Shown here piece after piece: positions 1,776 to 35,739 of a stretch of DNA of 44,769 bases; positions within the stretch are counted from its first letter, which is position 1; every line of letters begins with the position of its first letter. The stretch covers positions 1 to 44,769 of IMG/VR virus record IMGVR_UViG_3300032224_000682; one strand, 5' to 3'. The translations under genes were made by a program, and so were the position numbers. The notes under the pieces are model-generated. The model made no database searches. It saw nothing but the letters and a program-made list of their open reading frames with translations, and had not been told where the DNA came from. This DNA is from a virus. Its lineage: Duplodnaviria > Caudoviricetes.

Positions 1776-4700
1776 ATGGGACTTTTCGACGATCTTCTTG
1801 AGGAAGATAATATACAGACTACTCCGAAGCGCAATGGCTTATTTGATGATCTTCTTGAAGAAGATGACCTTACTTCCAATCAACATCCCGTTGTTGATGA
1901 TTACTTTACTCCACGGCAAATAGCTACTGATAAATCAGAAAAAGATAAATCATTTTTTGGAGTTTTAGATACTGCGTCTGCAATTGGAGAGGCTGCATCT
2001 GATCTTATAACTGGAGTTCCTGCGGCTATGAGAAGAGCGAAGGTTGGTCTTATTCGCCCAGATCAATATAGTCCAGAAGATGTAATTGCATTTGAGGCTG
2101 AAAGAAAAAGGAACGAACAACTTGAAATTGAGCGTCAGAAAAGAATTTCCGCTGGAGAAGAAACATCTGTTGGTTCAGCAATTAGGGAGGCTGGTAGGAG
2201 TCTTGGATTTACTGCCGCCAATATACTTCCCGCGATGGCTGGTGGAGCTGCTGCTGGAGCTATTGCTGGGGCTGCATTTCCAGCAGCTGAAGTTGCAACA
2301 ATTCCTATTGGAGTAATTGCATCTGGAATTGGAGCGGCTGCTGGGTCTGCTCCAGTTGCATACAGAATGGCTGGAGCGCAATTTTTGGATGATGCATTCA
2401 ATCAGCTTGAAAGCAATTCTCTGAAGAAAAACAATAGACCATTAACAGAAGAAGAGAAGGATGCCGCATACAAAGAACTACTTCCAATAGCTCAAAATAC
2501 TGGAATATGGGAAGCTGGACCGGAGGCTGTTGGTAATGCTGTAACATTAGGAGTTGGTAAGTTTGTATTTGGATTCGGGAAAGAAGTTGCAACTGGCATT
2601 GCATCTAATGCAATTAAATCAGCTACAAAAACAATTGGTAAGAAAGTTATAGAAAAGGGAGCCGCAATAGCTGGTGATTTAGCTGTTGAACTTGGTGGTG
2701 AAACAATTACTCAAACACAGCAAGGGTATGATGATGCAAAGGCACAACAATATATTAAAACCGGTAGCACAGCTGGTGCTGTTGATGAATATAAAGGGTT
2801 AGCTGGGTTGGGAAAAGCCTTCAAAGAAATAGCTCCTGCAACAATAGCCACAATGGGATTAATGGGTGCAGTTGCCGGAGGAGCTAAACTAGCATCAAAA
2901 CCATTTTCAAATAAAACGGAAACTGGAGAGGAAGAAAAAAACAATAATGCTGAAAATACAGCGATTGGAGGAGCTATAATTACTGATAATTTAAATAGAA
3001 ACAATTCTCCAGAAACAGCAAGGGCAATACAAGATTTAGCGGCAAATGAACTTTCAGATCAACTTGAGAGTGACTTTGCATCACAACAAGCAGCAGCCGC
3101 TGCACAACAACAACAAAAAAATGCCACTAAAGAAATCATCAAGCCAGAAGGCGTTCGTGAAGAACCTCAAAACGGAACTGAAACACAACCGACCAATGAA
3201 ACAATCGCTCGCCATCGCGTATTCAATCCAGAAGGAAGCAAAGAAAAAGAACAAATAGAGTCAGGAGTTAAGCTCAAAGACGCTTGGTATAATAGGGAGA
3301 TCAACAATCTCTCCTCTCTTTCTGGCCTCTCTAATCAAAGCGTGCATTCTGCTATGCTCCCTGGCATCCAGAATAGCGAGGTTCTCAAGTCTATTGTCAC
3401 ATTTATTCCCGTTGATGTGATGAATGACCTCAGGGTAAGAAACATCCCTGCCGATGAACTCCTCAACAACCCAGATATGCTCAGGGATACTCTTTCCTCT
3501 GATAGTAATAATGACATATTTAGAGGGGTCGTTGGTGCGCTTGGATCGGGAGTAGCAGGATTGAGAACAGAACTTCTTGGAAGACTTGGAAGGAATGACC
3601 TTGAAGGTGCAGCCGCATTGATTGCAGGATTTAAGAATCCCTCCAGTCTTGCGTCTTTTCTTGCTCAAGACGACATTCCTAAATTTACTTCCTCTGTTCC
3701 AGCAGAGTTTACCAACGCACTCTCTAGAGCAGCATCTAGCGGTCTTCTCCCTGTAGGGTCTGACGCTGAAAATATTTCCACAAACTTCGCACGACTTTTT
3801 GATTTGACTGAGCATAGTGCTAAATTAAAAACTAAATTTAAAGAAAAGTCAATAAGCAATCGCATACAAAAAACAAAAAGCGAAGAAGAAAGGCAAATAG
3901 CCAGAGACATTGTAAGCGAGCTGCAGGCTGTATCAAACAATACCGCTACAAACGAGCAGATTGCCCGTCTATCGATGGATGGACTCGTAGATGTCCGTAG
4001 AGGCCAAGCCATCATCAACGAGGACGGAGAGGGCATCCTCGCGCAAGCACAAGCCCCATTGCCAAAGCTCACTCCAGAAGCAAGAGCGGCTGAAGTTGAA
4101 GCTGTAACTGCACCAGAACTAATGCAAAATGGAGTGATTAGAACTCCACTAAAGGGAATTACAGGATCACAACAAGAAATAGAAGATAAGACTTTATTTA
4201 AAAATCAAATTCTATCGTTACCTGATGGAAGTGTTATTGTAACCGATCCAGATGTTACGGGATTAGCGCGACAAGTTCGTGTATCAAAAATAGGTAATGA
4301 GGTGTGGCTTGAAGACGCTAAAACCGAACAGTTGATTTGGAAGCCTGGTTTAAATGAAGGCGCGATTCTTGATATGAAAGGGGGAGTAATAAAAGCTCCC
4401 GCGATCACTAATACTGTGTCCGAACAACCTATCATTGGAGAAAAACCACAAGTTTCTCCGATAGTAGGCGATCAAGTTACAGATACAACTCCAGTAGAAC
4501 AAGTTGCTGAAACTCAAATCGCAGAAGAACCTATCATCTCGGAAAAACAACAAACTTCTGAGATAGTAGGCACTGAAACTGCTGCACCCGAAGTTTCTGC
4601 TATTAAACCACAAGTTCAAGTTACAAATATTGATTCACTAATAGATCAAGGTGGTGGAACTGTAGCAGTTCAAGAAGATGGGAGAGATGTAAAATTCAAA

Positions 4701-7700
4701 CAATTTGGTATTGGAATTGACGGCAATACGGCAGAAATAGCATTTGTTGAACTTGATCCTTCTGAACAAGGAAAAGGCATAGGAATAGAAGCGTATCGTT
4801 CATTAGGAAGTGAGTTAGCTGCTCGTGGAATTATTTTAAGAAGTAGTGGAGCGCAATATGGGCCCGGTCATAACCTTTGGTTAAAATTAGCAAAAGAGGG
4901 GTTAGCAAAAAGAGTGGGGCAGCGTTATCAGTTTGTCGCACCCGCCGAGCCAACTGTCAACCAACAGTTGACGGTTCCTCCTACACAAGCTGCACCAATT
5001 GAAAAATTAAAATCAACTTCTCCTGAATCGCAATTATATATTGATTGGATAAACGAACAAATTGAATTAGGTGCTAAAATTTATCAAGGAACTCCCAATG
5101 AAAGAGCATTGACTCTTGATGATGTTGTAAAGGTATCGCAGTTAAAGACTGGGGCTATTCCAAATACAACAGAAAATTCATTAAAATACGGAGGTTTAGG
5201 AATTGGGAATCAAATCAGTAAATTGATTCAATCAGATTCAAGACTCCAAGGTAGAAATAATTTTGAAATAAAAAATCAAATTGAAACTGGATTATATTCT
5301 GGTAGGGGAATAGAGATTTCTGCTATTGAACCAGTTGCTACAATCGCTCCAGAACCAGTCACCGCGCCAGTAGCAGAACCTTCCCAAACGGGAATAACAC
5401 GGCCTGCCATAGCCGCCGAAGAACAAGTTGTTACCGAGCTGGAAGCTGCACCAGCAGAAGTTCCCGCGCCAGAGGTTGCGCCTAAAGCTATAAAAGATTA
5501 CGCAACTGGAGATGTTAATACTCCATTTTATTTTGAAAATGATTCTTGGAATGTTGATGAATCACGACTTAAAAGCGGTGATGAGGTAATTGAAACTTCA
5601 GACGGCCCAGCCGTATATTCTCGCGCTAATGACGGTAAAGTTACGGCAATTGGAGTAAACGCAAATGGTCGCCAAGTTTATATTGGTGAATCGTCCAATT
5701 CTTTCATGCCGTCTGATTATTCAAATGTTCCAGTTAGTGAAATGTTTTCCGCATTAAAAGGATCACGCACTTATGAATCTGATAGGGCTGGAGATTTATT
5801 TCCAGTAATAGACCAAAAAACAGCAGAAAAACTTATTTCAAAATACCCTCCAACCAATCCCGCCCCCGCAGTATCGGAAACAATAACAGAGCCAGCAGCT
5901 CAACCTACTCCAGCAACTCAACCGGAAGGCATAGCAGTAGGCAACCGAATCAAGTTAGGCAAGAGTCCACAGACATACACCATCGAAGAAGTAATCCCGC
6001 AGACAACAACAGAGAGAGATTTGGGCGAGCAGTATTACTCTGTAAAAAACGAGCGCACGGGCGAGGTACAGGTAGTGGAGGCAATGGATTTGAAGAAGGT
6101 TGGAGGTAAGAGAGCGCGGAAAATGACTGCTTCTACTCCACAGCAAACGCTTTGGTCAATTCCTCAACAAGAAATCTCAAGTGCTGCTACATCAATTAAT
6201 CAGAGCAAAATGCCAGCTACATTTAAGAATGTTAAATGGGAGTCTGGAACAAGAAATGCAGATATTGGCGGAGGAAGATTTGATAATGCAACTGAATACT
6301 TAGCAGGTCTTGGAACGGAAAATGTTATTTACGATCCATATAATCGCAGCCAAGAATCAAATCAAATTGCTGTATCAAAAATATCTGGAGGGCAATCAGA
6401 TACCGCTACAATAAATAATGTTCTTAATGTTATTGCTGAACCAGAATCACGCGACCTTGTTATTCGTCAAGCAGCAGATGCAATAAAGCCAGATGGTAAG
6501 GCTTACTTTTTAATTTACGAAGGAAGCTCAAAAGGGGTTGGATCACAAACTAAATTTGGATGGCAAGAAAATAGAAAAGCAGAAACATATATTGCTGAAA
6601 TTAAAAACCACTTTGGAAATGTAACGCGAAAAGGAAATCTTATTATTGCTGAAAATCCAGTAAAAACAAAAGAACCATTGCGTCAAGCGGCAGAATTTAA
6701 AAACGAGGAAATAGTCACGCCAATTCCAGAAGCAAATCGCTACACATACGAAGAAGCTGTAAGGCTAGTTGACTCCTACTTCGACAAAGAAGGAATACCG
6801 GAAGGCATTGTTATCGTAAATAATACTACTGATCCAGACCTTGAGATGAAGGCTGGATACTTCGTAGATCGTGGACAGATCGTGATTAACCTTGCGTATA
6901 TCGCTAAAGGCGAGAGCCTATCTGACATTATCTCACACGAACTTGGTCATTTCATATTTAGTGATCCGCAGTTCCAAGCTGACTTCAAAGCATTCTGGGA
7001 CTTGATGACACCAGAGGAGCAGGCTGATGCAGATAGAATCATCAATCAATTTTACAATAAAGAAACTGGAGCAATCCAGATGGAGGAGAAACAAGTCCGC
7101 GCATTCATGCAGTTGATCCAAGACAGCAAAGCAATGCCGAAGTGGAGGCAAATTCTGGACAGCATCAAGCGTTGGATTAACAAGTATCTTAAAACAAATT
7201 TTCAAGTAACTGACAGAAACGCATTGGCAGTCCTTGCTGCCGCACATAAACGATTTAAGAGTGGTGAGCGCATCATCCGTGAGATTGATTCTGGAGTACT
7301 GAAGACAGCAGATACGGCACAGGATGCGGAGTATCTTGCAGCGGTTGAGCGTGGAGACATGGAGACTGCACAAAGGATGGTGGATGAAGCGGCAAGGAAG
7401 GCTGGATACAATAGCCCAATGGTTTATCATGGTTCTTCAGATAAACCATTTAATATTTTTAAAACAAAGCGCGGTAAAAAAGGAACAAGAGAAGGCGGTG
7501 CATTTTTTACCCCAACAGAAACATTGGCTAACTATTTTGCAGAAATTTCTCAACAAGTAAAATATGGAGGGATTACAGATAAACCTGGTATAATTTACAA
7601 GGCATATCTTAAAATGGATAATCCTGTTGTAATTGACCAAAAGTTTGAAAATGTAGGTTCAATAGAAGATAAGAACATAAATAGAATCAAAGCTGCAAAG

Positions 7701-10700
7701 AAATATGGTTTTGATGGAATCATATGGAAGAACACAATTGAACCATTTCATCCAGATGGAGTAGATCAATATATTGTATTTTCTTCAGAACAAATCAAGT
7801 CATCAGACCCAGTAACCCGTGATGATCAAGGTAATGTAATCCCACTCTCCCAAAGATTCCGCACTACCTCGCAAGACATCCGCAGAATGGCAGCAGAGCC
7901 TCGCCGCGAGCAAGTTGCTGGAATGGAACGTGGAGACATTATTACAACTCCAGAAGGAATTATTAAGCAAACCAACGAAGTATTGCGTAATAAGTTCTTC
8001 GATGGATCAGAAGTATCTGATGAGGCTACTTTAAATGCATGGAACTACATAGAGCAAATGTTAGATATTAAATCTGGCGCAGCCAATGCTCTTGCAGGAC
8101 AGATTAACGATGTTGCAGATCAAGAAACAAATTCGGATACAAGAATGGGAGCGAGTTTATTCTCTGTGTCGCTTGCAAATTATGCCGCAAAGTTGGCTGC
8201 TCAAGGTGATACTACGATGATTTCCTATCTTATCCGTAGGATTAATCGTATGCCTATTGATAACCTTGCTGGAGGAATAAGCAAAGCTGCTGAGGCAATG
8301 AGAGCGAAAAGAGAATACAATATTGATGGATTCAATACGCTTAAAACTGAAGGGAAATCTAAAGTAGAAAGAACAGCAGCGGCATTGTTTGGCACAGACA
8401 AACCAGGCGAAGATCAAGTAAAGGCTGTTGATGATGCAATTAAAGCATCAGAGGATACACCTATTGGAGAGCCTGAAGAAGTTTCCGCTGAAATTGAAAA
8501 AGTAGAGAATAGGACAGGGCGTAAAGTAATCAAGGCTATCGATGATAAGATCAAAGAAAATATTGAAGGACGCAAAAATCTTGCACTTGAAAAGCAAAAA
8601 AGCAGACCAAGAACTCCTTATGGAGTAGAAGGACAAGCACAATCAATTATAAATCAATTCTCAACATTATTGAGCGATGTTCCAACATTTACAGAGAAAC
8701 AAGAAAATCGCATTAGAACTATTGTTCAACAAGACTTGAGGCAGAGGCCAGATATGAAACGCAAGCAACCATGGACAAGCCAACTGACGGCAAAGCTTAT
8801 TGATGCTGGTGTTGATGAGGCGCAGGCTCAAATAATTTCTGATCTTGTATGGAGACAGCATGAGATCAAAACAATGGATCGTGAGCTTAAGGAGTTTCAA
8901 ACAGCAGCAGAGAAAGGTTCTCTTACAGTCATTATCCAACGCATCAAAGATACACCTATTGAGCAGCAGCAGAAGCCAGGTTGGATGCAAGGCGTTATTC
9001 GTGAATATTTAATTGGTTCTGGACTATCGAGTAAAGCGGCAGACACGGCAGCAAGACTATATGAAAGCGTAATTTCAGAAAGATTGGCTGAAGCAAAGCA
9101 AAAGGCATTTAATGAAACACTTTCTAAATCTGCTCCGTGGAATAACTATCTATCCAGAAATAGCAGACTCGGAAAAGATGCATTAAAGAAAATTCAAGAC
9201 GCAATCAGAACTGGTGTTCTTGATCCAACGCAAAATGTTGAAAGCATTATTGCAAAAGAAAATGGGTGGTCTGGTTTTTCTAAAGAACAATTGCAGCGGA
9301 TCGTTCAATTGGATAATGTTATTTCTAATCCAGATACTGATGAGGTTACAAAAGCAGAATCAATGCATGAGCTTAACTCAATTATTGTTAAAGCAAAAAT
9401 GCCAGTAAGATTTAAAGATGCGATTGGAGCCTACTATGTTGGTCAGGCGCTTATGGGTATTCCGACATTGACTGTTAACATAGCATCGCCTATTGGGTTC
9501 TCAGTTAGAAATCTTATTTCAGACATTGGGCGTTACTCGTTTACGGAACCATCAAGAATCCCAATGGCATTTGAGACATTCTTGGATAGTATGAAGTCAT
9601 GGTATAACCAAACATCATACGCATTTAAAAACCAAATATATCTAAACGATGTAGTTGAATATCTTAATGGTCAGAATGTTCTTCGTGAGTTGTTTGATAA
9701 AGGAAAGGCTCAGTGGGCTAAAGGTGAATATGCAAGTGGAATGGTTAATATGCTTGTTGGTATGACGCAAATTACTGGGCGTGTCTTAGCGTCTTTGGAT
9801 CAAGGTGCTATTTCAATGTTGGAGAATCAAAACATTAGCCGATACGCAATGGAGGCAATGAAGCAAAAAAACATTCCGCAAGCGAGACGCAAGGAAATTG
9901 CTAATATGATTCTTGATACGCGAAGAAGAACATACGCTGAAAGCATTGCCGCAGGAATGGAGAAAGATCGATCTGGTGTTTTAGCAGATATGGCAGTCCG
10001 AACTGAAATTGCAGAGGCACTTGCACCAGAAGGAATTAATTTCAAAAACGTATTGGATTCTGCAATTAATGACTCGCTTCAAGCTGTTGGAAGGAACAAA
10101 ACAATTGATACAAAAGGAATTGTTGAAGAGAGTAAAAGGCTTTCAGATGCTGGAATGTTGTCTTATTTGCCAATTGAGTTTCTTCAAAAGATAGCATCTG
10201 GAGCAGCTAATAGTGGACCTCTTATGCAAGTATTTTCAAAAATGCTTTATGGATTTGCACTTGTGCCTGCAAGGGTATTCCATACTACAGCTTGGTATTC
10301 TCCATATGGATTTATCCGACTTGGAATTGATAAGTATAAAAAGAACAAAGGCGAAGAGTCTCCGTATGCAATGAGCTTGCAAACAGACTTGCAATACAAG
10401 CAAAGATTAACAGATGCTATTGCCGGATCAATTGTTATGCTTGGATTGGCTGCACTTGCAAGTGGCTCTGCTGATGATGATGACGATAAAAAGTTCAAAA
10501 TTGTTATTACTGGAAACGGTCCAAGTTATACAGCGGACAGACAATATTTTGATTCTTGGAACAAAAAGTGGAAGCCATACAGCATCCATATTGTTATGGG
10601 AGATACAATTATTCCAATAAATATTGGAAGAGGTGGCGAGGCATTATTCTTCCCTATAATGCTTGCTGGTGCATTAGATGATTGGGGAATTAAAAAGAAA

Positions 10701-11423
10701 TTGAATCTCACAAAGAAAACTCCAGAAGACCTTAATTTCGCTGTAGAAGCACTGGGTTCAGCGTTCTTTGCTCTGGCTCAAAGAGGTCCATACGCCGCAT
10801 TCACAAGACCATTGTTTGACGCTTCTAAGGAAGGCAAGATTACCGAAGAGCTTGTTGGTCAAGCTGGGTTCTTTGGTAAAACATTTGTTCCAATATTGGG
10901 GGCATCAGTTGCAAGAAATATATCTGACTTCATCAATGATCCGGTTGATAGGTCTTCATTGGAAGGAGCAATCTATGCCAACACCCCTGTTATTGGCCCA
11001 TGGATGGGTACTAAGGCGCTTAATGCTCTTGGACAACCAATCAGGGCGGATGACTGGGGTGACAAGCTATACAAGCTTGGAGTTCCAGTTGCGTTCTCAT
11101 TTCCTAAAAATACTCCAGAGAATGAACTAAATGAATTGATTCTTAAAAAAGGAGGGGGTCCGTCTATTCCTACAAGATCAAATGCACAGAAGCGACTTGG
11201 TGATGTTATGACAGATAAAGAGTTTGAAACATATGTTCGTGAATATGGACGTGTTGTATCAGACAAGATGTTTAAAAATCGAAAGAAGCTTGAAAATATG
11301 TCAGTTAAAAACTATGATGATGAACTTCAAAAATATGTTACTGGATATTCAATTGACGGAATCAAAGTCACCGGAGCTTCTGATATGGCAGTTCGCGCTG
11401 TAAAGCGATCAAGAAACCAATGA
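1776..11423 (+). CDS. Giant polyvalent virion (ejection) protein with GNAT-like, SAM-methyltransferase-like, HExxH metallopeptidase and ADP-ribosyltransferase-like domains
   Basis: 3215 aa; duplicated GLFDDLLEED at N-terminus; Gly/Ala hydrophobic segments; ELDPSEQGKGIG (GNAT, ~4750); ADIGGGRFD..YDPYNR..NNVLNVI (MTase, ~6260-6430); SHELGH (~6935); VYHGS..GAFFT..GFDGII..YIVFSSEQIKS (ART-like, ~7420-7800). Confidence 0.8.
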   Translation: MGLFDDLLEEDNIQTTPKRNGLFDDLLEEDDLTSNQHPVVDDYFTPRQIATDKSEKDKSFFGVLDTASAIGEAASDLITGVPAAMRRAKVGLIRPDQYSPEDVIAFEAERKRNEQLEIERQKRISAGEETSVGSAIREAGRSLGFTAANILPAMAGGAAAGAIAGAAFPAAEVATIPIGVIASGIGAAAGSAPVAYRMAGAQFLDDAFNQLESNSLKKNNRPLTEEEKDAAYKELLPIAQNTGIWEAGPEAVGNAVTLGVGKFVFGFGKEVATGIASNAIKSATKTIGKKVIEKGAAIAGDLAVELGGETITQTQQGYDDAKAQQYIKTGSTAGAVDEYKGLAGLGKAFKEIAPATIATMGLMGAVAGGAKLASKPFSNKTETGEEEKNNNAENTAIGGAIITDNLNRNNSPETARAIQDLAANELSDQLESDFASQQAAAAAQQQQKNATKEIIKPEGVREEPQNGTETQPTNETIARHRVFNPEGSKEKEQIESGVKLKDAWYNREINNLSSLSGLSNQSVHSAMLPGIQNSEVLKSIVTFIPVDVMNDLRVRNIPADELLNNPDMLRDTLSSDSNNDIFRGVVGALGSGVAGLRTELLGRLGRNDLEGAAALIAGFKNPSSLASFLAQDDIPKFTSSVPAEFTNALSRAASSGLLPVGSDAENISTNFARLFDLTEHSAKLKTKFKEKSISNRIQKTKSEEERQIARDIVSELQAVSNNTATNEQIARLSMDGLVDVRRGQAIINEDGEGILAQAQAPLPKLTPEARAAEVEAVTAPELMQNGVIRTPLKGITGSQQEIEDKTLFKNQILSLPDGSVIVTDPDVTGLARQVRVSKIGNEVWLEDAKTEQLIWKPGLNEGAILDMKGGVIKAPAITNTVSEQPIIGEKPQVSPIVGDQVTDTTPVEQVAETQIAEEPIISEKQQTSEIVGTETAAPEVSAIKPQVQVTNIDSLIDQGGGTVAVQEDGRDVKFKQFGIGIDGNTAEIAFVELDPSEQGKGIGIEAYRSLGSELAARGIILRSSGAQYGPGHNLWLKLAKEGLAKRVGQRYQFVAPAEPTVNQQLTVPPTQAAPIEKLKSTSPESQLYIDWINEQIELGAKIYQGTPNERALTLDDVVKVSQLKTGAIPNTTENSLKYGGLGIGNQISKLIQSDSRLQGRNNFEIKNQIETGLYSGRGIEISAIEPVATIAPEPVTAPVAEPSQTGITRPAIAAEEQVVTELEAAPAEVPAPEVAPKAIKDYATGDVNTPFYFENDSWNVDESRLKSGDEVIETSDGPAVYSRANDGKVTAIGVNANGRQVYIGESSNSFMPSDYSNVPVSEMFSALKGSRTYESDRAGDLFPVIDQKTAEKLISKYPPTNPAPAVSETITEPAAQPTPATQPEGIAVGNRIKLGKSPQTYTIEEVIPQTTTERDLGEQYYSVKNERTGEVQVVEAMDLKKVGGKRARKMTASTPQQTLWSIPQQEISSAATSINQSKMPATFKNVKWESGTRNADIGGGRFDNATEYLAGLGTENVIYDPYNRSQESNQIAVSKISGGQSDTATINNVLNVIAEPESRDLVIRQAADAIKPDGKAYFLIYEGSSKGVGSQTKFGWQENRKAETYIAEIKNHFGNVTRKGNLIIAENPVKTKEPLRQAAEFKNEEIVTPIPEANRYTYEEAVRLVDSYFDKEGIPEGIVIVNNTTDPDLEMKAGYFVDRGQIVINLAYIAKGESLSDIISHELGHFIFSDPQFQADFKAFWDLMTPEEQADADRIINQFYNKETGAIQMEEKQVRAFMQLIQDSKAMPKWRQILDSIKRWINKYLKTNFQVTDRNALAVLAAAHKRFKSGERIIREIDSGVLKTADTAQDAEYLAAVERGDMETAQRMVDEAARKAGYNSPMVYHGSSDKPFNIFKTKRGKKGTREGGAFFTPTETLANYFAEISQQVKYGGITDKPGIIYKAYLKMDNPVVIDQKFENVGSIEDKNINRIKAAKKYGFDGIIWKNTIEPFHPDGVDQYIVFSSEQIKSSDPVTRDDQGNVIPLSQRFRTTSQDIRRMAAEPRREQVAGMERGDIITTPEGIIKQTNEVLRNKFFDGSEVSDEATLNAWNYIEQMLDIKSGAANALAGQINDVADQETNSDTRMGASLFSVSLANYAAKLAAQGDTTMISYLIRRINRMPIDNLAGGISKAAEAMRAKREYNIDGFNTLKTEGKSKVERTAAALFGTDKPGEDQVKAVDDAIKASEDTPIGEPEEVSAEIEKVENRTGRKVIKAIDDKIKENIEGRKNLALEKQKSRPRTPYGVEGQAQSIINQFSTLLSDVPTFTEKQENRIRTIVQQDLRQRPDMKRKQPWTSQLTAKLIDAGVDEAQAQIISDLVWRQHEIKTMDRELKEFQTAAEKGSLTVIIQRIKDTPIEQQQKPGWMQGVIREYLIGSGLSSKAADTAARLYESVISERLAEAKQKAFNETLSKSAPWNNYLSRNSRLGKDALKKIQDAIRTGVLDPTQNVESIIAKENGWSGFSKEQLQRIVQLDNVISNPDTDEVTKAESMHELNSIIVKAKMPVRFKDAIGAYYVGQALMGIPTLTVNIASPIGFSVRNLISDIGRYSFTEPSRIPMAFETFLDSMKSWYNQTSYAFKNQIYLNDVVEYLNGQNVLRELFDKGKAQWAKGEYASGMVNMLVGMTQITGRVLASLDQGAISMLENQNISRYAMEAMKQKNIPQARRKEIANMILDTRRRTYAESIAAGMEKDRSGVLADMAVRTEIAEALAPEGINFKNVLDSAINDSLQAVGRNKTIDTKGIVEESKRLSDAGMLSYLPIEFLQKIASGAANSGPLMQVFSKMLYGFALVPARVFHTTAWYSPYGFIRLGIDKYKKNKGEESPYAMSLQTDLQYKQRLTDAIAGSIVMLGLAALASGSADDDDDKKFKIVITGNGPSYTADRQYFDSWNKKWKPYSIHIVMGDTIIPINIGRGGEALFFPIMLAGALDDWGIKKKLNLTKKTPEDLNFAVEALGSAFFALAQRGPYAAFTRPLFDASKEGKITEELVGQAGFFGKTFVPILGASVARNISDFINDPVDRSSLEGAIYANTPVIGPWMGTKALNALGQPIRADDWGDKLYKLGVPVAFSFPKNTPENELNELILKKGGGPSIPTRSNAQKRLGDVMTDKEFETYVREYGRVVSDKMFKNRKKLENMSVKNYDDELQKYVTGYSIDGIKVTGASDMAVRAVKRSRNQ
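3121..3258 (+). CDS. Small basic phage protein (MPLKK-type) nested in an alternative frame of the giant gene
   Basis: MPLKKSSSQKAFVKNLKTELKHNRPMKQSLAIAYSIQKEAKKKNK resembles a recurrent small phage protein pattern (MPLKK..S..N..E..P.KQA.AIA.S, recalled not searched); A-rich sequence before the ATG. Confidence 0.7.
   Translation: MPLKKSSSQKAFVKNLKTELKHNRPMKQSLAIAYSIQKEAKKKNK
3261..3815 (-). CDS. Zn-finger HNH endonuclease (homing-endonuclease-like) nested antisense in the giant gene
   Basis: Two CxxC...CSxxC modules (CEVC..CSREC, CNQC..CSQSC), then EHIWVVE..VIHHINGNKCDNRLENL..EHSRMH. Confidence 0.9.
   Translation of the reverse strand: MLSQIKKSCEVCGNIFSVRPYREKTARCCSRECVGKLCWNRGSKFRNVVLSKKRRKTGGILKSCNQCGCTFKVIPSKSSKKFCSQSCYSRSKRTNDPSKYVIITIRGKSIPEHIWVVEEFIGRDVSYPEVIHHINGNKCDNRLENLAILDAREHSRMHALIREARKRGEIVDLPIIPSVFELNS
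3824..3852 (-). promoter_or_regulatory. Sigma70-like promoter for the antisense HNH gene
   Basis: Minus strand TTGACT-17 nt-TTTAAT-8 nt-ATG(3815), lying in coding sequence of the giant gene. Confidence 0.65.
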
Positions 11424-13568: not shown

Positions 13569-14119
13569 TAGTTAAAGCAAAGTCACAAATATCAGAAGTT
13601 GATAAACTTGTTCAATATTGCAAGCAGTTAGACGGAACTGTAGTCAAAATTATCCAGAATGACGAGAATGTTGCCAGCTATCCAGAACGCAACAATCATG
13701 CGTTACAGCAGGCGTTTAACGCAATGGGTGACGAGCCTTTCATCTGGCTTGAACCCGATAGCATTCCGTTGAAGGAAGGATGGGTTTCTGAACTTGAGTC
13801 TGAGTACAAGAGACTTGGTAAACATATTATGCTGTCAAGCGATACCCATCCACCGCACGATATTGTCGGAGGGATTGGCGTATATGGAGGTCTTGCAAGA
13901 AAGCTGATACCAGCAGGGATTAAAGCAGATGGATGGGATGGATGGACAATCAAGAACATCAAGCCACTGGTTTCTTTTACTCCGCTAATTCAGCACACAT
14001 ATGGCGACTACTCAAAAGGTGGATGTAATCAGCATATCTTCCCAAGAGACAATCACATTATCCGTAAAGATGCTGTGATCTTCCACCGAGACAAACAGCA
14101 GGGATTGATTAATAGATAG
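13556..14119 (+). CDS. Putative GT-A-like glycosyltransferase, paralog of 16341-17291
   Basis: FIWLEPD (ExD in DxD position), GIGVY, LIQH, DAVIFH. Confidence 0.5.
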   Translation: MQAVIVKAKSQISEVDKLVQYCKQLDGTVVKIIQNDENVASYPERNNHALQQAFNAMGDEPFIWLEPDSIPLKEGWVSELESEYKRLGKHIMLSSDTHPPHDIVGGIGVYGGLARKLIPAGIKADGWDGWTIKNIKPLVSFTPLIQHTYGDYSKGGCNQHIFPRDNHIIRKDAVIFHRDKQQGLINR

Positions 14120-15902
14120 AACGGAACTTGCTGAACGCTTGCTTCCATCCACTGCTTAACACCTTATTGTTCGTATTTAATGCCTTTGTTGCCTTTCCGC
14201 TATCAAGGTTCAATCTTTCCCTTGCAAGAGCTAATAGACCCATCCCAGCGTCAGCAATGTCAGGTGATATACCAAACCTTGATTTCATTTCAGACTTAGG
14301 TAGAACTTTAATGCGGAGAGCTAAGTTCTTCTCGCCATTGGGATCGAGCTTTCTCATGCACATCTCGCGCAGCAGATCATCACCAATTCCTTTGATCTGA
14401 CCAGTCCGCATATATTCCTTAGCTGAGTACCAAATCTCAGATACAGAGTTGACATATCTTTCGTGTGACGGGGTTGGATCGTAAGCTGACACCGGATTTT
14501 CAGATGCTCGCCCACCAAACTGAAGACCGTATACGTCTTTTGACCATGCTACCGAGATAAAATCTCCTAGCGGACCACCAGCGCCGGACTTATCGTATCC
14601 TGCATTCTTTGGTTGAACGCCTCTTGCCAAGCACTCATTACGGAACCATTGCACAACTTGCTGTGATCTTGTCATGGACTTGTCAGTAACATCCTCGCTG
14701 AATACAAGAAACTCATCATATTGCAATCCACGATACCCATGTGGCTCTGCTAGTTTACCAACAGTTCCAAAGTAAAGAACAGTTCTATCTCCACCATTGG
14801 TAAATGATGGATCAAGGAATGCAACCTTCGCCTTATCATTATCAAGCCATACCGCTTTGTCAGTAGCCTTAGAGTTAAGTATTTCAACCTCAGAGTAAAT
14901 TTGATCTGTAATACCAGCGGGACACCAGAATCCACGATACATTCGCCAGAACGAGGAAGTATTCTTGGCATCCTCTGGAATCTTATCAAAGTCTTGCGGT
15001 CCTTCCATCCATGAGTAAATCTTTTTTCTGGCAACCATATTGGGATTCTTTAGCCCATCAAAGTGTAAGCACACTCCACGATCCGTCTTCCACTCTTCAT
15101 CATCTACATCAATCGAATCCCATCCTTCTTTAGGTTTAGCAAACTTACCAAACGCATCCACATACGAGGCAGGGTTAGAAATTCCAATAAACTGGAAGCG
15201 TTCGCAACCCTTAGACAAGTTAAAGAATGCAACCTCCGTAATAGCCTCTGATAGCTCAGAAAGCTCATCAGCTACAAAGATAACATTCTTGTTGTGGATA
15301 CCCTGCATCTTACCAGTAGCGTCACGCTCTTTCTTTTTTTCACCAGGAATAAGTACAATACCGGAAAGGTCTGATCGCTTTCCACCAATGCCAACAAAGC
15401 TGATTTTATTCTCTGAATCTACAAGATGCCCTGGAAGTCCAAGCTGTTCGCAAACTCCCCAGTATCGAGTTATCTTACCCCAAATACGCTGCTTAGATGC
15501 TTTGATCGTAGTGGATGTTGCGAGGACTGTGGTGTTCTCTGGATCAGCAAGGTAGTTAATGATTGCCCATATTGCGTACGCTTCTGATTTACCGCAACCA
15601 CCGGAACCTGCAATTGCAAGGTATTCGTGATCGCAAGCTGCGCGTATCATTCGTTCTGCCCATGGATGCCATATAAAGTTAACGGTAGCCTTGCTATCGC
15701 GTTCAGGCCAAAATGCCTTGGCTATCCTTTGGAAGTGATGAAACGTATCTACAGCACCAGTATCAGTTGGTATTCTTTTTGTTATCTTTTCACGGAACAT
15801 TGCTAACTCAATAGCTATTTGGTGTGTTCCCTTACGCCAGTTAAACCCATATTGGTGCAAGTAGCCTTCCATTGGGTCGCCAAAAATAGGAGCAAAATTC
15901 AT
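14109..15902 (-). CDS. terL: Terminase large subunit
   Basis: Walker A GSGGCGKS, Walker B VIFVADE, ISNP coupling motif, RNase H-like AFLDPS...GGD and SPDIADA. Confidence 0.9.
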   Translation of the reverse strand: MNFAPIFGDPMEGYLHQYGFNWRKGTHQIAIELAMFREKITKRIPTDTGAVDTFHHFQRIAKAFWPERDSKATVNFIWHPWAERMIRAACDHEYLAIAGSGGCGKSEAYAIWAIINYLADPENTTVLATSTTIKASKQRIWGKITRYWGVCEQLGLPGHLVDSENKISFVGIGGKRSDLSGIVLIPGEKKKERDATGKMQGIHNKNVIFVADELSELSEAITEVAFFNLSKGCERFQFIGISNPASYVDAFGKFAKPKEGWDSIDVDDEEWKTDRGVCLHFDGLKNPNMVARKKIYSWMEGPQDFDKIPEDAKNTSSFWRMYRGFWCPAGITDQIYSEVEILNSKATDKAVWLDNDKAKVAFLDPSFTNGGDRTVLYFGTVGKLAEPHGYRGLQYDEFLVFSEDVTDKSMTRSQQVVQWFRNECLARGVQPKNAGYDKSGAGGPLGDFISVAWSKDVYGLQFGGRASENPVSAYDPTPSHERYVNSVSEIWYSAKEYMRTGQIKGIGDDLLREMCMRKLDPNGEKNLALRIKVLPKSEMKSRFGISPDIADAGMGLLALARERLNLDSGKATKALNTNNKVLSSGWKQAFSKFRSIY

Positions 15903-21526: not shown

Positions 21527-22714
21527 ATGTCACAATATAATCTCGCTGATGTAAACAATCAGCTTCAACAGGAAGCCGGACGTATCGGTGAAATGATCTC
21601 CGCTAAACTCATCGCAACTGACCCTTGGAATCGTCTTGTCAAACAAGACACCTTCCCTGCTGGAATGGGCGAATCTATCCAGACCCTCATTCAAGAGCGT
21701 ACAACCGTTCCTAACGCATCCTCGACTGCGTGGGAAGACGTTGGCACCAACGATGGAACTGGCAATACCTGTAACCCAACTCCTCAAGTTGTTGAGTTTG
21801 CTCGCACACTCAAGAGCTACAACCTCCAGCAGTCTGCTATCCGTTCTCCTGGTTTCTGCGTGAACGATCTTCGCACTGCGTGGAAGGCTGAAGAGCAGCT
21901 TGCTGGTGAAGTCAAGGTTCTTAAAGAGAACTCTCAGTGGTTCTGGAGCAACCGTTATCGTGATGAGTTTTCTCGTCTCGCTGGCAACAAGGTTGTGACT
22001 GACGTGAATGATACTTTGGCGATGTCCACAAGCACATCGAACCAAGCGTTCCCAGCAGCTGCTCCTGCTTACGCCCTTGACCAAGGTATCCTTGATCAGT
22101 TCTATCTCGACCTTTCCCGCGATGCGGCTGAGGGTAACTACGCGATTGTTGATGGTGAGCCTCAGTATGCTCTCATCTGCTCTCCTGAAACGAGCAACTA
22201 CCTCAAGAAACAGAACGCTGATATCCGTCAGGACTTGCGTTTCTCTTCGCAGGTTGATGAGCTTATCAAGCCATTTGGTGCTGCATTCAGCTACAGCGGA
22301 TTTGTCCACTTGGTTGATCGTCAGGCCCCTCGTTACACCTTCACTGGTGGCGCGTTTGTTCGTGTGCCGTTCTTCACTACTGCCCCAGCTGGTACTGGAT
22401 TGAAGGCTGTTGTGAACCCAGCATACCGCACCGCTCCATATGAAGTGTCGTTCATCTACAACCCACACGTCTATACCTCACGTGTTGCACAGGTCATCAC
22501 AAGCCCAGGCTCTGGTCTGAAGTTTGACCCTGTTAACTATCGTGGTGAATTCATGTGGATCAACAACAAGGACAATGCCAACAACATCCTCGGTGTTAAT
22601 GGCTACTTCTATGCCTTGTTCATGCAGGGTTCTCAGCCTAAGCGCACCGAATGGGGTTATGCTATCATGCACCTTCGTTGCAATCCTGCTACTCTGTATC
22701 AGTCCTGCTCGTAA
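21527..22714 (+). CDS. Major capsid protein
   Basis: 395 aa, strongly biased codons (highly expressed), follows scaffold, flanked by terminators. Confidence 0.8.
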   Translation: MSQYNLADVNNQLQQEAGRIGEMISAKLIATDPWNRLVKQDTFPAGMGESIQTLIQERTTVPNASSTAWEDVGTNDGTGNTCNPTPQVVEFARTLKSYNLQQSAIRSPGFCVNDLRTAWKAEEQLAGEVKVLKENSQWFWSNRYRDEFSRLAGNKVVTDVNDTLAMSTSTSNQAFPAAAPAYALDQGILDQFYLDLSRDAAEGNYAIVDGEPQYALICSPETSNYLKKQNADIRQDLRFSSQVDELIKPFGAAFSYSGFVHLVDRQAPRYTFTGGAFVRVPFFTTAPAGTGLKAVVNPAYRTAPYEVSFIYNPHVYTSRVAQVITSPGSGLKFDPVNYRGEFMWINNKDNANNILGVNGYFYALFMQGSQPKRTEWGYAIMHLRCNPATLYQSCS

Positions 22715-34282: not shown

Positions 34283-35716
34283 ATGTGGATACTACCATCA
34301 CAACTCTTGAAATGTGCGCCGGATATGGAGGCATTGGACTTGGAATCAAAAACATCTTTGGCGAGCGATTGCGAACCATTGCATATTGTGAGCTTGAGGG
34401 GTTCGCTCAAGCCAATCTCATCAGTAAGATGGAAAAAGGACTCTTGGATGCAGCACCTATATGGAGCGATCTTAAAACCTTTCCATACGAATCGTTTCAC
34501 AGACTGGTGGACATCCTCATTGCGGGATACCCATGTCAGCCATTTAGCGCAGCAGGAAAGCGAGCAGGTAAAGAAGACCCAAGACATCTTTGGCCTTGGA
34601 TCGCAGACGGAATTCGACTTCTTCAACCAAGAATGTGCTTCTTTGAAAACGTCGAAGGACACATCTCGTTGGGACTCTCAACAGTCATCAGTGATCTGGA
34701 AGAACTGGGTTATAAAAGTTCGTTCGGAATATTCAGTGCGAGTGAAGTTGGCGCAGTCCACCAAAGGAAAAGAGTGTTTATCATGGCCCACCGCAACGGC
34801 GAGGGATTTTGCAGGGAAAAGTGGTTCTGGCAGGCAGGGGCGCAAGGGGCATCCAGCGGATACTCTACCGAATGCGGTAGCTCAATGGCCGACACCAACA
34901 GCAGGAGAATGTCTGGATCAAGGAACGAATTGGGAAACGCTGGCGAGGCTGGACAAGGGTGGTCGAATACTTCGCAGGATGGCATCATTGGAAATGTCTG
35001 GCCATCACGCCCCGGTCAACCACAATACGCATGGGAACCGCCAAGGGTCGTGGCTAACTCCAAACACGATGGACTCACTTCCTGTCAGATCGGAGGAAGC
35101 ACTTGCGAGACAATACCAGAAAAACAGATTTGGGAGGACAACTCACTCAACATTGAGAGAGCAAGTTGCATTGCCACCACCAAGTCAGATGGCATGGGCA
35201 ACTCCTCGCAGTTGTTCTGCTATGGCAGCAACAATAACAGAGGAATCAGTGAACAAGGAGAACAGATTCCCGAATCTAGAAACTCAAGTTGGGAGGCAGC
35301 AATGGGCAACGCCAAGAGCAGGGAAAACAACGGACGAGAATCCAGAGACATGGCTGAAGCGTCAAGCCAACGGGGATGTTGCGACGATGCCACTAACGGC
35401 GCAAGTGAAAGTGAAACAATGGGCAACGCCACGAATAGGCGGCGAGGAAAAAGCGGAGACGAGACTTGCGAGGGGGCGGGAAATTGGACTTCACGGACAA
35501 GTGGGAGCAATGACGAACTCAGCAAAACTCAACAGCCAATGGGTTACTCAACTCATGGGGCTGAATCTCGGTTGGGTATCTCCGAGCTGTCCGGCCTCAG
35601 TGATTCTGAATTGGCCGAAATTCGTGAGTGGATGGTGCGCTGCGACAACAGAACAGATGAACTGCGATTGCTCGGCAATGGAGTTGTCCCGGCAACAGCA
35701 ACCAGAGCTTTTCTGA
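34283..35716 (+). CDS. Overlapping-frame methyltransferase partner (beta-like) with motif IX and six WxTP-type repeats
   Basis: 477 open codons; WPTAT, WPTPT, WLTPN and three WATPR; KLNSQWVTQLMGLNLGW resembles motif IX. Confidence 0.75.
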   Translation: MWILPSQLLKCAPDMEALDLESKTSLASDCEPLHIVSLRGSLKPISSVRWKKDSWMQHLYGAILKPFHTNRFTDWWTSSLRDTHVSHLAQQESEQVKKTQDIFGLGSQTEFDFFNQECASLKTSKDTSRWDSQQSSVIWKNWVIKVRSEYSVRVKLAQSTKGKECLSWPTATARDFAGKSGSGRQGRKGHPADTLPNAVAQWPTPTAGECLDQGTNWETLARLDKGGRILRRMASLEMSGHHAPVNHNTHGNRQGSWLTPNTMDSLPVRSEEALARQYQKNRFGRTTHSTLREQVALPPPSQMAWATPRSCSAMAATITEESVNKENRFPNLETQVGRQQWATPRAGKTTDENPETWLKRQANGDVATMPLTAQVKVKQWATPRIGGEEKAETRLARGREIGLHGQVGAMTNSAKLNSQWVTQLMGLNLGWVSPSCPASVILNWPKFVSGWCAATTEQMNCDCSAMELSRQQQPELF

Positions 35717-35739
35717 CACTATTGGAGAAACTAAAATGA
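34285..35739 (+). CDS. C5 cytosine DNA methyltransferase, catalytic (alpha-like) polypeptide lacking motif IX
   Basis: Motif I CAGYGG, IV GYPCQPFS, VI FENV, VIII QRKRVFI, X LLGNGVVP; GTG start. Confidence 0.85.
   Translation: MDTTITTLEMCAGYGGIGLGIKNIFGERLRTIAYCELEGFAQANLISKMEKGLLDAAPIWSDLKTFPYESFHRLVDILIAGYPCQPFSAAGKRAGKEDPRHLWPWIADGIRLLQPRMCFFENVEGHISLGLSTVISDLEELGYKSSFGIFSASEVGAVHQRKRVFIMAHRNGEGFCREKWFWQAGAQGASSGYSTECGSSMADTNSRRMSGSRNELGNAGEAGQGWSNTSQDGIIGNVWPSRPGQPQYAWEPPRVVANSKHDGLTSCQIGGSTCETIPEKQIWEDNSLNIERASCIATTKSDGMGNSSQLFCYGSNNNRGISEQGEQIPESRNSSWEAAMGNAKSRENNGRESRDMAEASSQRGCCDDATNGASESETMGNATNRRRGKSGDETCEGAGNWTSRTSGSNDELSKTQQPMGYSTHGAESRLGISELSGLSDSELAEIREWMVRCDNRTDELRLLGNGVVPATATRAFLTLLEKLK

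Follow-up and report, generated by a model that had tools for sequence, protein, structure and literature searches.

A small phage gene nested in a giant polyvalent protein gene and a likely homing endonuclease inserted within it

In the phage DNA analysed here, a giant gene contains, within a linker region, a nested small basic gene of the phrog_2423 family, and this small gene in turn contains an HNH gene that likely encodes a homing endonuclease. The inserted element brings a recoded tail for the small gene, leaves the old tail behind and keeps the giant frame open. We give this reading as a whole a probability of about 0.8.

The window, by which we mean the whole stretch of DNA analysed, is a phage fragment of 44.8 kb that encodes a tail fibre, a methylase and a replication initiator. 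The enclosing gene (1776..11423, plus strand) is an ORF of 3215 amino acids whose product contains an ART-PolyVal domain (PF18760) at 1882–2010, scored at 58 bits against a Pfam cut-off of 31. Its relatives bear LPD23, methylase or ParB domains, and the large polyvalent protein class fits them: ART-PolyVal is found in the window and in L002, and LPD23 in L136 and L075. The giant product is likely to be virion cargo. Around the nested gene, the giant-frame sequence is rich in Pro, Glu, Thr and Gln and resembles a linker, with 62–75% disorder-promoting residues compared with 55% overall. The N-terminal ∼450 residues of the giant occur in at least four barely alignable types (window 1776–3120 vs L088–L111, L136, L216 and L222); the downstream parts are mosaic and the nested block is constant. 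Elsewhere in the window, two long ORFs of 477 and 484 amino acids overlap in different sense frames at the DNA methyltransferase gene (34283–35716 and 34285–35739, plus strand), and a 312-residue antisense ORF (21530–22468, minus strand) lies within a 395-residue gene (21527–22714, plus strand). A 597-residue gene (14109–15902, minus strand), on the strand opposite to its neighbours, matches phrog_5902, which is also matched by terminase large subunits.

The nested gene (3121..3258, plus strand) occupies the +1 frame of the giant and runs from an ATG at 3121 through 45 codons (MPLKK...KKKNK) to a TAG at 3256–3258. An earlier note on this DNA had pointed to a likeness to a common small phage protein, and a profile search bore this out: residues 1–44 match positions 1–44 of the 52-position phrog_2423 profile with an E value of 6e-14. 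The same family is matched by 79 of 88 candidate proteins at E ≤ 0.001, the small protein itself matches 439 phage records at E ≤ 1, and all 11 invariant residues of the family alignment are present in it. The family is large, with an estimated 11,000 or so matching stretches in the viral collection. At the level of sequence, these matches confirm the nested ORF as a genuine member of a widespread family of small basic phage proteins. The ORF had been described as following an A-rich run; the ORF is real, but the poly-A run is not conserved in relatives. Its stop does lie 2 nt from that of the HNH gene (3261–3263, minus strand), and the dual-coded stretch, put earlier at about 700 bp, comes to 138 + 555 = 693 bp. 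No other complete copy of the small gene was found in the 44.8-kb contig.

Selection at this locus acts on the small gene. The set used for dN/dS comprised 16 distinct 138-nt alleles from 19 non-duplicate loci, two having collapsed as identical and L095 having been left out for a one-codon deletion. Across these 16 alleles, dN/dS was 0.136 in the nested frame, indicating purifying selection, and 2.35 in the giant frame; variable columns numbered 33, 16 and 7 at nested codon positions 3, 1 and 2, respectively, and amino acid identity was 0.90 in the nested frame vs 0.69 in the giant frame. Selection across the 16 alleles thus favours the small gene over the giant frame, which upholds the earlier note's view of the ORF as a gene. 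Ungapped DNA identity is ∼0.95 in the first 60 nt of the nested gene; it drops below 0.4 farther than 45 nt upstream and farther than 15 nt downstream, flank values that are depressed by indels. The nested block is the most conserved part of an otherwise mosaic giant gene.

Whether homologues are free-standing or nested, a question raised with the original observation, has a divided answer. The survey of free-standing copies took in the best 80 among 462 confirmed viral loci, which came from 4 of the collection's 64 parts. Not one of these 80 lies inside a same-strand ORF of at least 150 codons; the only open stretches are antisense, of 151–396 codons, at 14 loci, and N-terminal fusions occur at three. 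The relevant neighbouring frame is open in 1 of 76 free-standing copies, where ∼3% of random encodings would leave it open. In relatives of the window phage, L001 and L088–L091 among them, the small gene is always nested. A pattern search of viral and metagenome contigs gave 23 matches (some of them the same contigs) and a relaxed pattern 13, every one of them nested; the patterns were designed from nested alleles, so these counts are biased to nesting and give no estimate of frequency. Because the family is mostly free-standing, the nested copy is likely to be an old gene captured into the linker and not an overprinted one. A de novo overprinted gene was rejected, since homologues exist outside the overlap.

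In proteins, the nested gene leaves a ‘shadow’ in the giant frame. Among 1.84 billion representatives, a shadow profile, which works at the protein level only, picked out 26 clusters; most are proteins of 2300–3700 amino acids with the shadow at residues 400–700. In each of the 26, 18–23 of 23 conserved family positions are codon-compatible, compared with at most 13 elsewhere. Giants lacking the nested gene also exist (L002, L231 and P0084). P0084 misses the 46-residue shadow and is otherwise identical to P0083 at 862 of 867 positions (five substitutions), so the nested gene can be lost, and we infer its occasional loss from giants. Shadows also appear at much later positions in unrelated giants, at residue 1519 of P0113 and residue 952 of P0116; this pattern suggests that the small gene may have been captured repeatedly. 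L231 and L232, sought for the P0113 and P0116 shadows, showed no nested gene in the fetched DNA.

The insert in the nested gene is about 654 bp long (3208..3861, with the right border within 3855–3867) and begins after codon 29. The resident 5′ part (3121..3207, plus strand; codons 1–29) differs from the empty allele L001 at 2 of 87 nt. The incoming 3′ end (3208..3258, plus strand; 16 codons and the stop) differs from L001 at 17 of 51 nt, 11 of them third positions, yet keeps 12 of 16 residues; compared with each of 17 empty alleles, it differs at 12–21 nt. The displaced resident 3′ end (3856..3900, plus strand) reads AIAYKKQKAKKKGK-stop and is one codon shorter. Its last 29 nt agree at all 29 positions with L001 and with L103, and they run on directly into the downstream flank of those alleles. 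The displaced tail is now untranslatable in the nested frame, and the giant frame still codes through it. The net insert of the window and the deletion in this remnant are both multiples of three. Over 3259–3861 the giant frame contains no stop, compared with 10 and 28 in the other two plus-strand frames. The aligned alleles show that the HNH gene was inserted inside the nested gene, replacing its last 16 codons. With a recoded tail, a displaced tail and an open giant frame, a single insert seems to meet the needs of all three genes.

This geometry revises two proposals made earlier. One had the HNH gene inserted right behind a pre-existing overprinted gene; the small gene is indeed the older of the two, but the HNH gene lies inside it and not behind it, and ‘overprinted’ does not suit a family that is mostly free-standing. 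The other took the similar peptides TNETIAR and TNEQIAR, on either side of the HNH gene, as marks of a duplication. Both peptides occur ∼40 codons apart in the insert-free alleles L001 and L090 (as TNETIVG/TNETIAR and TNEQIAR/TSEQIAS), which also rules them out as a target-site duplication; the true duplication is that of the small gene 3′ end, 3208–3258 vs 3856–3900. At codons 26–36, the HNH-free alleles L090 and L222/L228 differ from the recoded copy at 5 of 24 nt, compared with 7–11 in others; they may be resistant, or may be left over from loss of the element.

The inserted gene (3261..3815, minus strand) encodes a 184-residue protein with a zinc finger and an HNH_3 domain, is convergent on the nested gene and is codon-aligned antisense to the giant. 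The HNH domain (PF13392) scores 41.4 bits against a cut-off of 24.8, the HNH motif is intact, and the Cys and His columns are invariant in four aligned homologues. None of the 30 Leu/Ser codons is TTA, CTA or TCA, where genome usage predicts 8.7 (P = 3e-5). The rarity of an open antisense frame is weaker than codon usage implies, as 15 of 81 distant HNH genes have one and, at GC 0.40–0.50, 3 of 33, L136 being one of these. Two more HNH genes, at L155:4845–5444 and L157:4545–5417 (GC 0.45), have an open codon-aligned antisense frame; they lie within opposite-strand frames of 200 and 291 codons, among genes of that opposite strand, and are possibly further read-through insertions. The segment upstream of the HNH gene (3816..3855, minus strand) is AT-rich (GC 0.22) with a TTGACT at 3852–3847 and is a possible promoter; a consensus promoter scan made no call there. 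A sigma70-like site, TTGATA-16-TACAAT (3909..3936, minus strand), faces the HNH gene and scores weaker in all four empty alleles with the same flank, a weak lead given that the sigma70-like scan found one site with 1.4 expected by chance and that promoter scans gave counts at chance level.

The HNH gene is scarce. No relative at E ≤ 1e-10 was found in 50,697 annotated phages. The HNH protein P0086 is 64% identical to that of the window, and scans for its DNA returned only distant HNH genes and L136. The small gene is present within the fetched flanks at 1 of 105 HNH loci examined (L136). Conversely, an HNH gene is nearby at 6 of the 80 free-standing loci, on the small gene's own strand and not convergent, and no HNH was found in any other nested locus or shadow protein examined, leaving two HNH lineages only.

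Other carriers and empty alleles came from sequencing runs, among which no RNA run was listed as containing this sequence. Run X1 contains the whole stretch and may be the source of the window. Run X2 comes from a separate study; it contains two HNH fragments without differences from the window, together with an empty allele whose joint is 3207>3872. Run X4, from a third study, carries the element from 3174, where the contig starts, to 3867, with 25 differences in 694 nt. The 30 nt that follow it are all identical to allele L111 and not to L001; the L111 giant background differs from the L001 type of the window, so the element is in a second host background. Of the 25 differences, 20 were listed; none of these makes a giant-frame stop singly, and the 13 that fall in the HNH gene are six synonymous and seven not. 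Alleles with and without the element thus exist at a conserved site that is altered in carriers, and the HNH gene is likely, on these comparisons, to be a homing endonuclease element.

The second lineage, L136, is in a phage of GC 0.53 and contains a nested gene, a convergent codon-aligned HNH gene and an open giant frame. Its HNH protein is 41% identical to that of the window, and the two giants share only the two shadows, those of the nested gene and of the HNH gene, in their first 1200 residues. None of 22 Leu/Ser codons in the L136 HNH gene is a forbidden one, although the codon-usage P value is only 0.037. A probable remnant is present in L136 (p = 0.009); it is degenerate and nearer the inserted copy than the empty allele. 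The empty counterpart of L136 is P0102; flank identity is 81% and 92%, and the insert adds a net 198 amino acids. As judged from these alignments, two HNH lineages share the same three-gene layout.

These observations are consistent with the following course of events. An old, free-standing head-protein gene would have been captured in-frame into the giant linker, where it would be translated from its own ATG at 3121 on the giant mRNA without a Shine-Dalgarno (SD) motif, the giant tolerating the 46 shadow residues. The constancy of the nested block would then have made the nested gene a homing target. The HNH enzyme would cleave alleles that lack the element, within or close to the near-invariant L-A-I-A-Y codons, and repair would copy the element in, homology being provided on one side by the small gene 5′ part and on the other by the old 3′ tail. 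The small protein would be restored by the recoded tail, which would also make the carrier immune. In its codon-aligned antisense orientation, free of TTA, CTA and TCA, the element would be read through in the giant as ∼215 filler residues with no splicing. A broader version is tentative: a long-lived antisense HNH family might home on a nested head-peptide gene, rebuild its tail and be read as filler, with the island acting as a recombination hinge that swaps N- and C-terminal domains of the giants and the peptide serving as an in-trans prohead-loading tag. The argument for homing on the nested gene would be that the 138-bp island is the only constant sequence in the hypervariable giants.

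It is improbable, to a lesser degree than the explanations considered below, that the HNH gene is a dead or passive passenger, brought in by one illegitimate recombination and spread by ordinary phage recombination instead of homing. In its favour, only two lineages carry the gene, the giant genes are mosaic anyway, and antisense frames are open in 3 of 33 comparable HNH genes. However, the motif is intact and above the Pfam cut-off, nearly half of the listed HNH changes between the window and X4 (6/13) are synonymous, and the recoding of the replacement tail falls on the best-conserved codons. A passenger also fits poorly with two HNHs of such low mutual identity at nearly the same site and in the same orientation.

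The start of the small gene bears on a quite improbable alternative, in which the small ORF is made by frameshift fusion, either from the giant N-terminus by a +1 shift into the ORF or from the motif, as a leader, by a −1 shift into the giant C-terminus. N-terminal fusions of the motif to a giant (L075) and to head proteases occur naturally, and the leader before the nested ATG (3091..3120, plus strand), which is C/A-rich and weakly structured, has no SD motif. Yet other genes of the window likewise lack SD motifs, the ATG is kept in all 23 nested loci and the stop in all alleles, an in-frame stop lies 0–1 codons before the ATG in 8 of 23 alleles, and no conserved slippery heptamer was seen by eye in the aligned alleles. 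An upstream in-frame ATG at 3046 (70 amino acids) is present in only 2 of 23 alleles, and 3121 is therefore the conserved start. The leader of relatives is also C/A-rich and G-poor, and the fold energy of −30..+15 is below the local mean strength in 23/23 alleles (percentile 0.01–0.26, the window at 0.26). A terminator-like hairpin on the HNH strand lies just upstream of the nested ATG (3090–3103, minus strand); three such hairpins were found with 1.0 expected.

Group I introns and inteins are common carriers of HNH endonucleases (PMC2988022), and the insert might on that ground be removed as an intron or intein, its open giant frame being incidental. This is very unlikely. No Rfam intron matched up to E 1 in 2800–4300, one snoRNA match at E 0.66 lying outside the insert. 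Only ∼50 + 45 nt (fewer than 100) lie outside the HNH ORF, the first 51 of which encode the small gene tail, and RNA splicing would also remove that replacement tail. Neither Cys nor an H-N/Q-C/S/T motif occurs in the 218-residue in-frame insert, and the giant has no Pfam intein match. Both intron and intein were accordingly rejected. Least probable of all is the earlier proposal that the giant ORF grew by reading through a once intergenic block of two genes. Most phages do have the small gene in free-standing form, but all other alleles except the L136 lineage and the carriers found have the nested gene in an uninterrupted giant that lacks the HNH, and giants lacking both (L002, L231 and P0084) remain single ORFs, which contradicts the proposal for the HNH gene.

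Lambda Rz1, inside Rz, is a complete gene in the +1 frame of another. The inner gene of the window differs from it in coming from a large free-standing family, and the outer frame evolves as an unconstrained linker. Proteins of phrog_2423 match the window gene by profile over 44 of 45 residues and share its hairpin; known members are free-standing or N-terminal fusions, whereas the window gene is wholly nested in a sense frame of the giant. The ShiLan domain, a hidden HNH insertion in mycobacteriophage DNA methylases (PMC11855218), is described as a zinc-finger HNH insert of patchy distribution that keeps the host frame open and has no intron or intein features, all of which recalls the element here. 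As described there, the ShiLan HNH shares the strand of its methylase host but is read in a shifted frame, in contrast to the antisense, codon-aligned HNH in a giant polyvalent host, and the words antisense, opposite and reverse are absent from the main text of that report (PMC11855218). In the window, unlike ShiLan, a third gene is involved: the nested one, which is apparently the target and has its tail replaced by the element.

Mobile ORFs with replacement C-termini are reported from fungal mitochondria, in Allomyces atp6 and in Glomus atp6, atp9, cox2 and nad3 (PMC3630166). There, too, an endonuclease brings a diverged, largely synonymous host 3′ end, and the displaced native end matches uninvaded relatives (PMC3630166); in the window, 17/51 nt of the incoming end and 0/29 nt of the displaced end differ from L001. 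The fungal elements, as described, are LAGLIDADG or GIY-YIG ORFs of organelles with no enclosing gene (PMC3630166), whereas the element here is an antisense HNH_3 gene in a phage whose insertion must also keep an enclosing frame open. The free-standing mob/seg homing endonucleases of T4 are similar in including the HNH family, in lying by or in conserved genes and in their sporadic occurrence (PMC2988022), but are described between genes and as cutting at a distance (PMC2988022), while the window HNH is inside two genes at its presumed target. Each part therefore has a published precedent; for the three-gene combination none was found. The search, which covered subscription journals thinly, returned no paper on phrog_2423 as a nested gene and none on an endonuclease within a nested phage gene, and a literature search on ‘MPLKK’ gave no hits.

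The small protein has a mass of 5.2 kDa and a pI of 10.5 and is predicted by AlphaFold to form a two-helix hairpin (pLDDT 87.5). The predicted hairpin matches viral models at TM 0.9, namely other uncharacterised proteins and a prohead protease. Among solved structures, a sequence search gave one hit at E 0.22, no real match, and Foldseek none at E ≤ 0.001; Pfam returned no family for the small protein. DUF6496 is a lead only: 2 of 56 aligned family members match it (best E 0.0036), and it has a 15% share in one Atlas cluster. Free-standing members most often adjoin portal and terminase genes. A member in Pbunavirus Ab28, gp35 (7.43 kDa), is annotated ‘virion protein’, and its counterpart by position and mass, not by sequence, is ORF22 of SCUT-S1, a 7.46-kDa protein listed in particles with seven peptides and 77% coverage (PMC6521218 Table 1). 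The phrog_2423 motif also forms the start of the head maturation protease gp28 of Obolenskvirus AP22. It is the N-terminus of a giant of more than 1700 residues (1709) with LPD23/ART-PolyVal domains at L075:5001–10127, and of two ∼200-residue proteins at L052:3476 and L067:5001. The small protein has about an even chance of being a head-interior peptide, the motif fused to head proteases and giant cargo then likely anchoring them in the prohead. The runner-up, that it is a DNA-neutralising core peptide, is possible but clearly less probable.

Gene callers discard both inner genes, so that a virion gene family and a mobile element become invisible in annotations, and 26 clusters of giant proteins carry the hidden gene. 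Here nesting would have arisen by capture of an old gene instead of overprinting. The insert would represent a third way, beside introns and inteins, for a homing endonuclease to occupy two coding frames with neither broken. Target and immunity could readily be tested in vitro on the matched empty and filled alleles, and the pattern of fusions provides a testable role for the unannotated phrog_2423 family.
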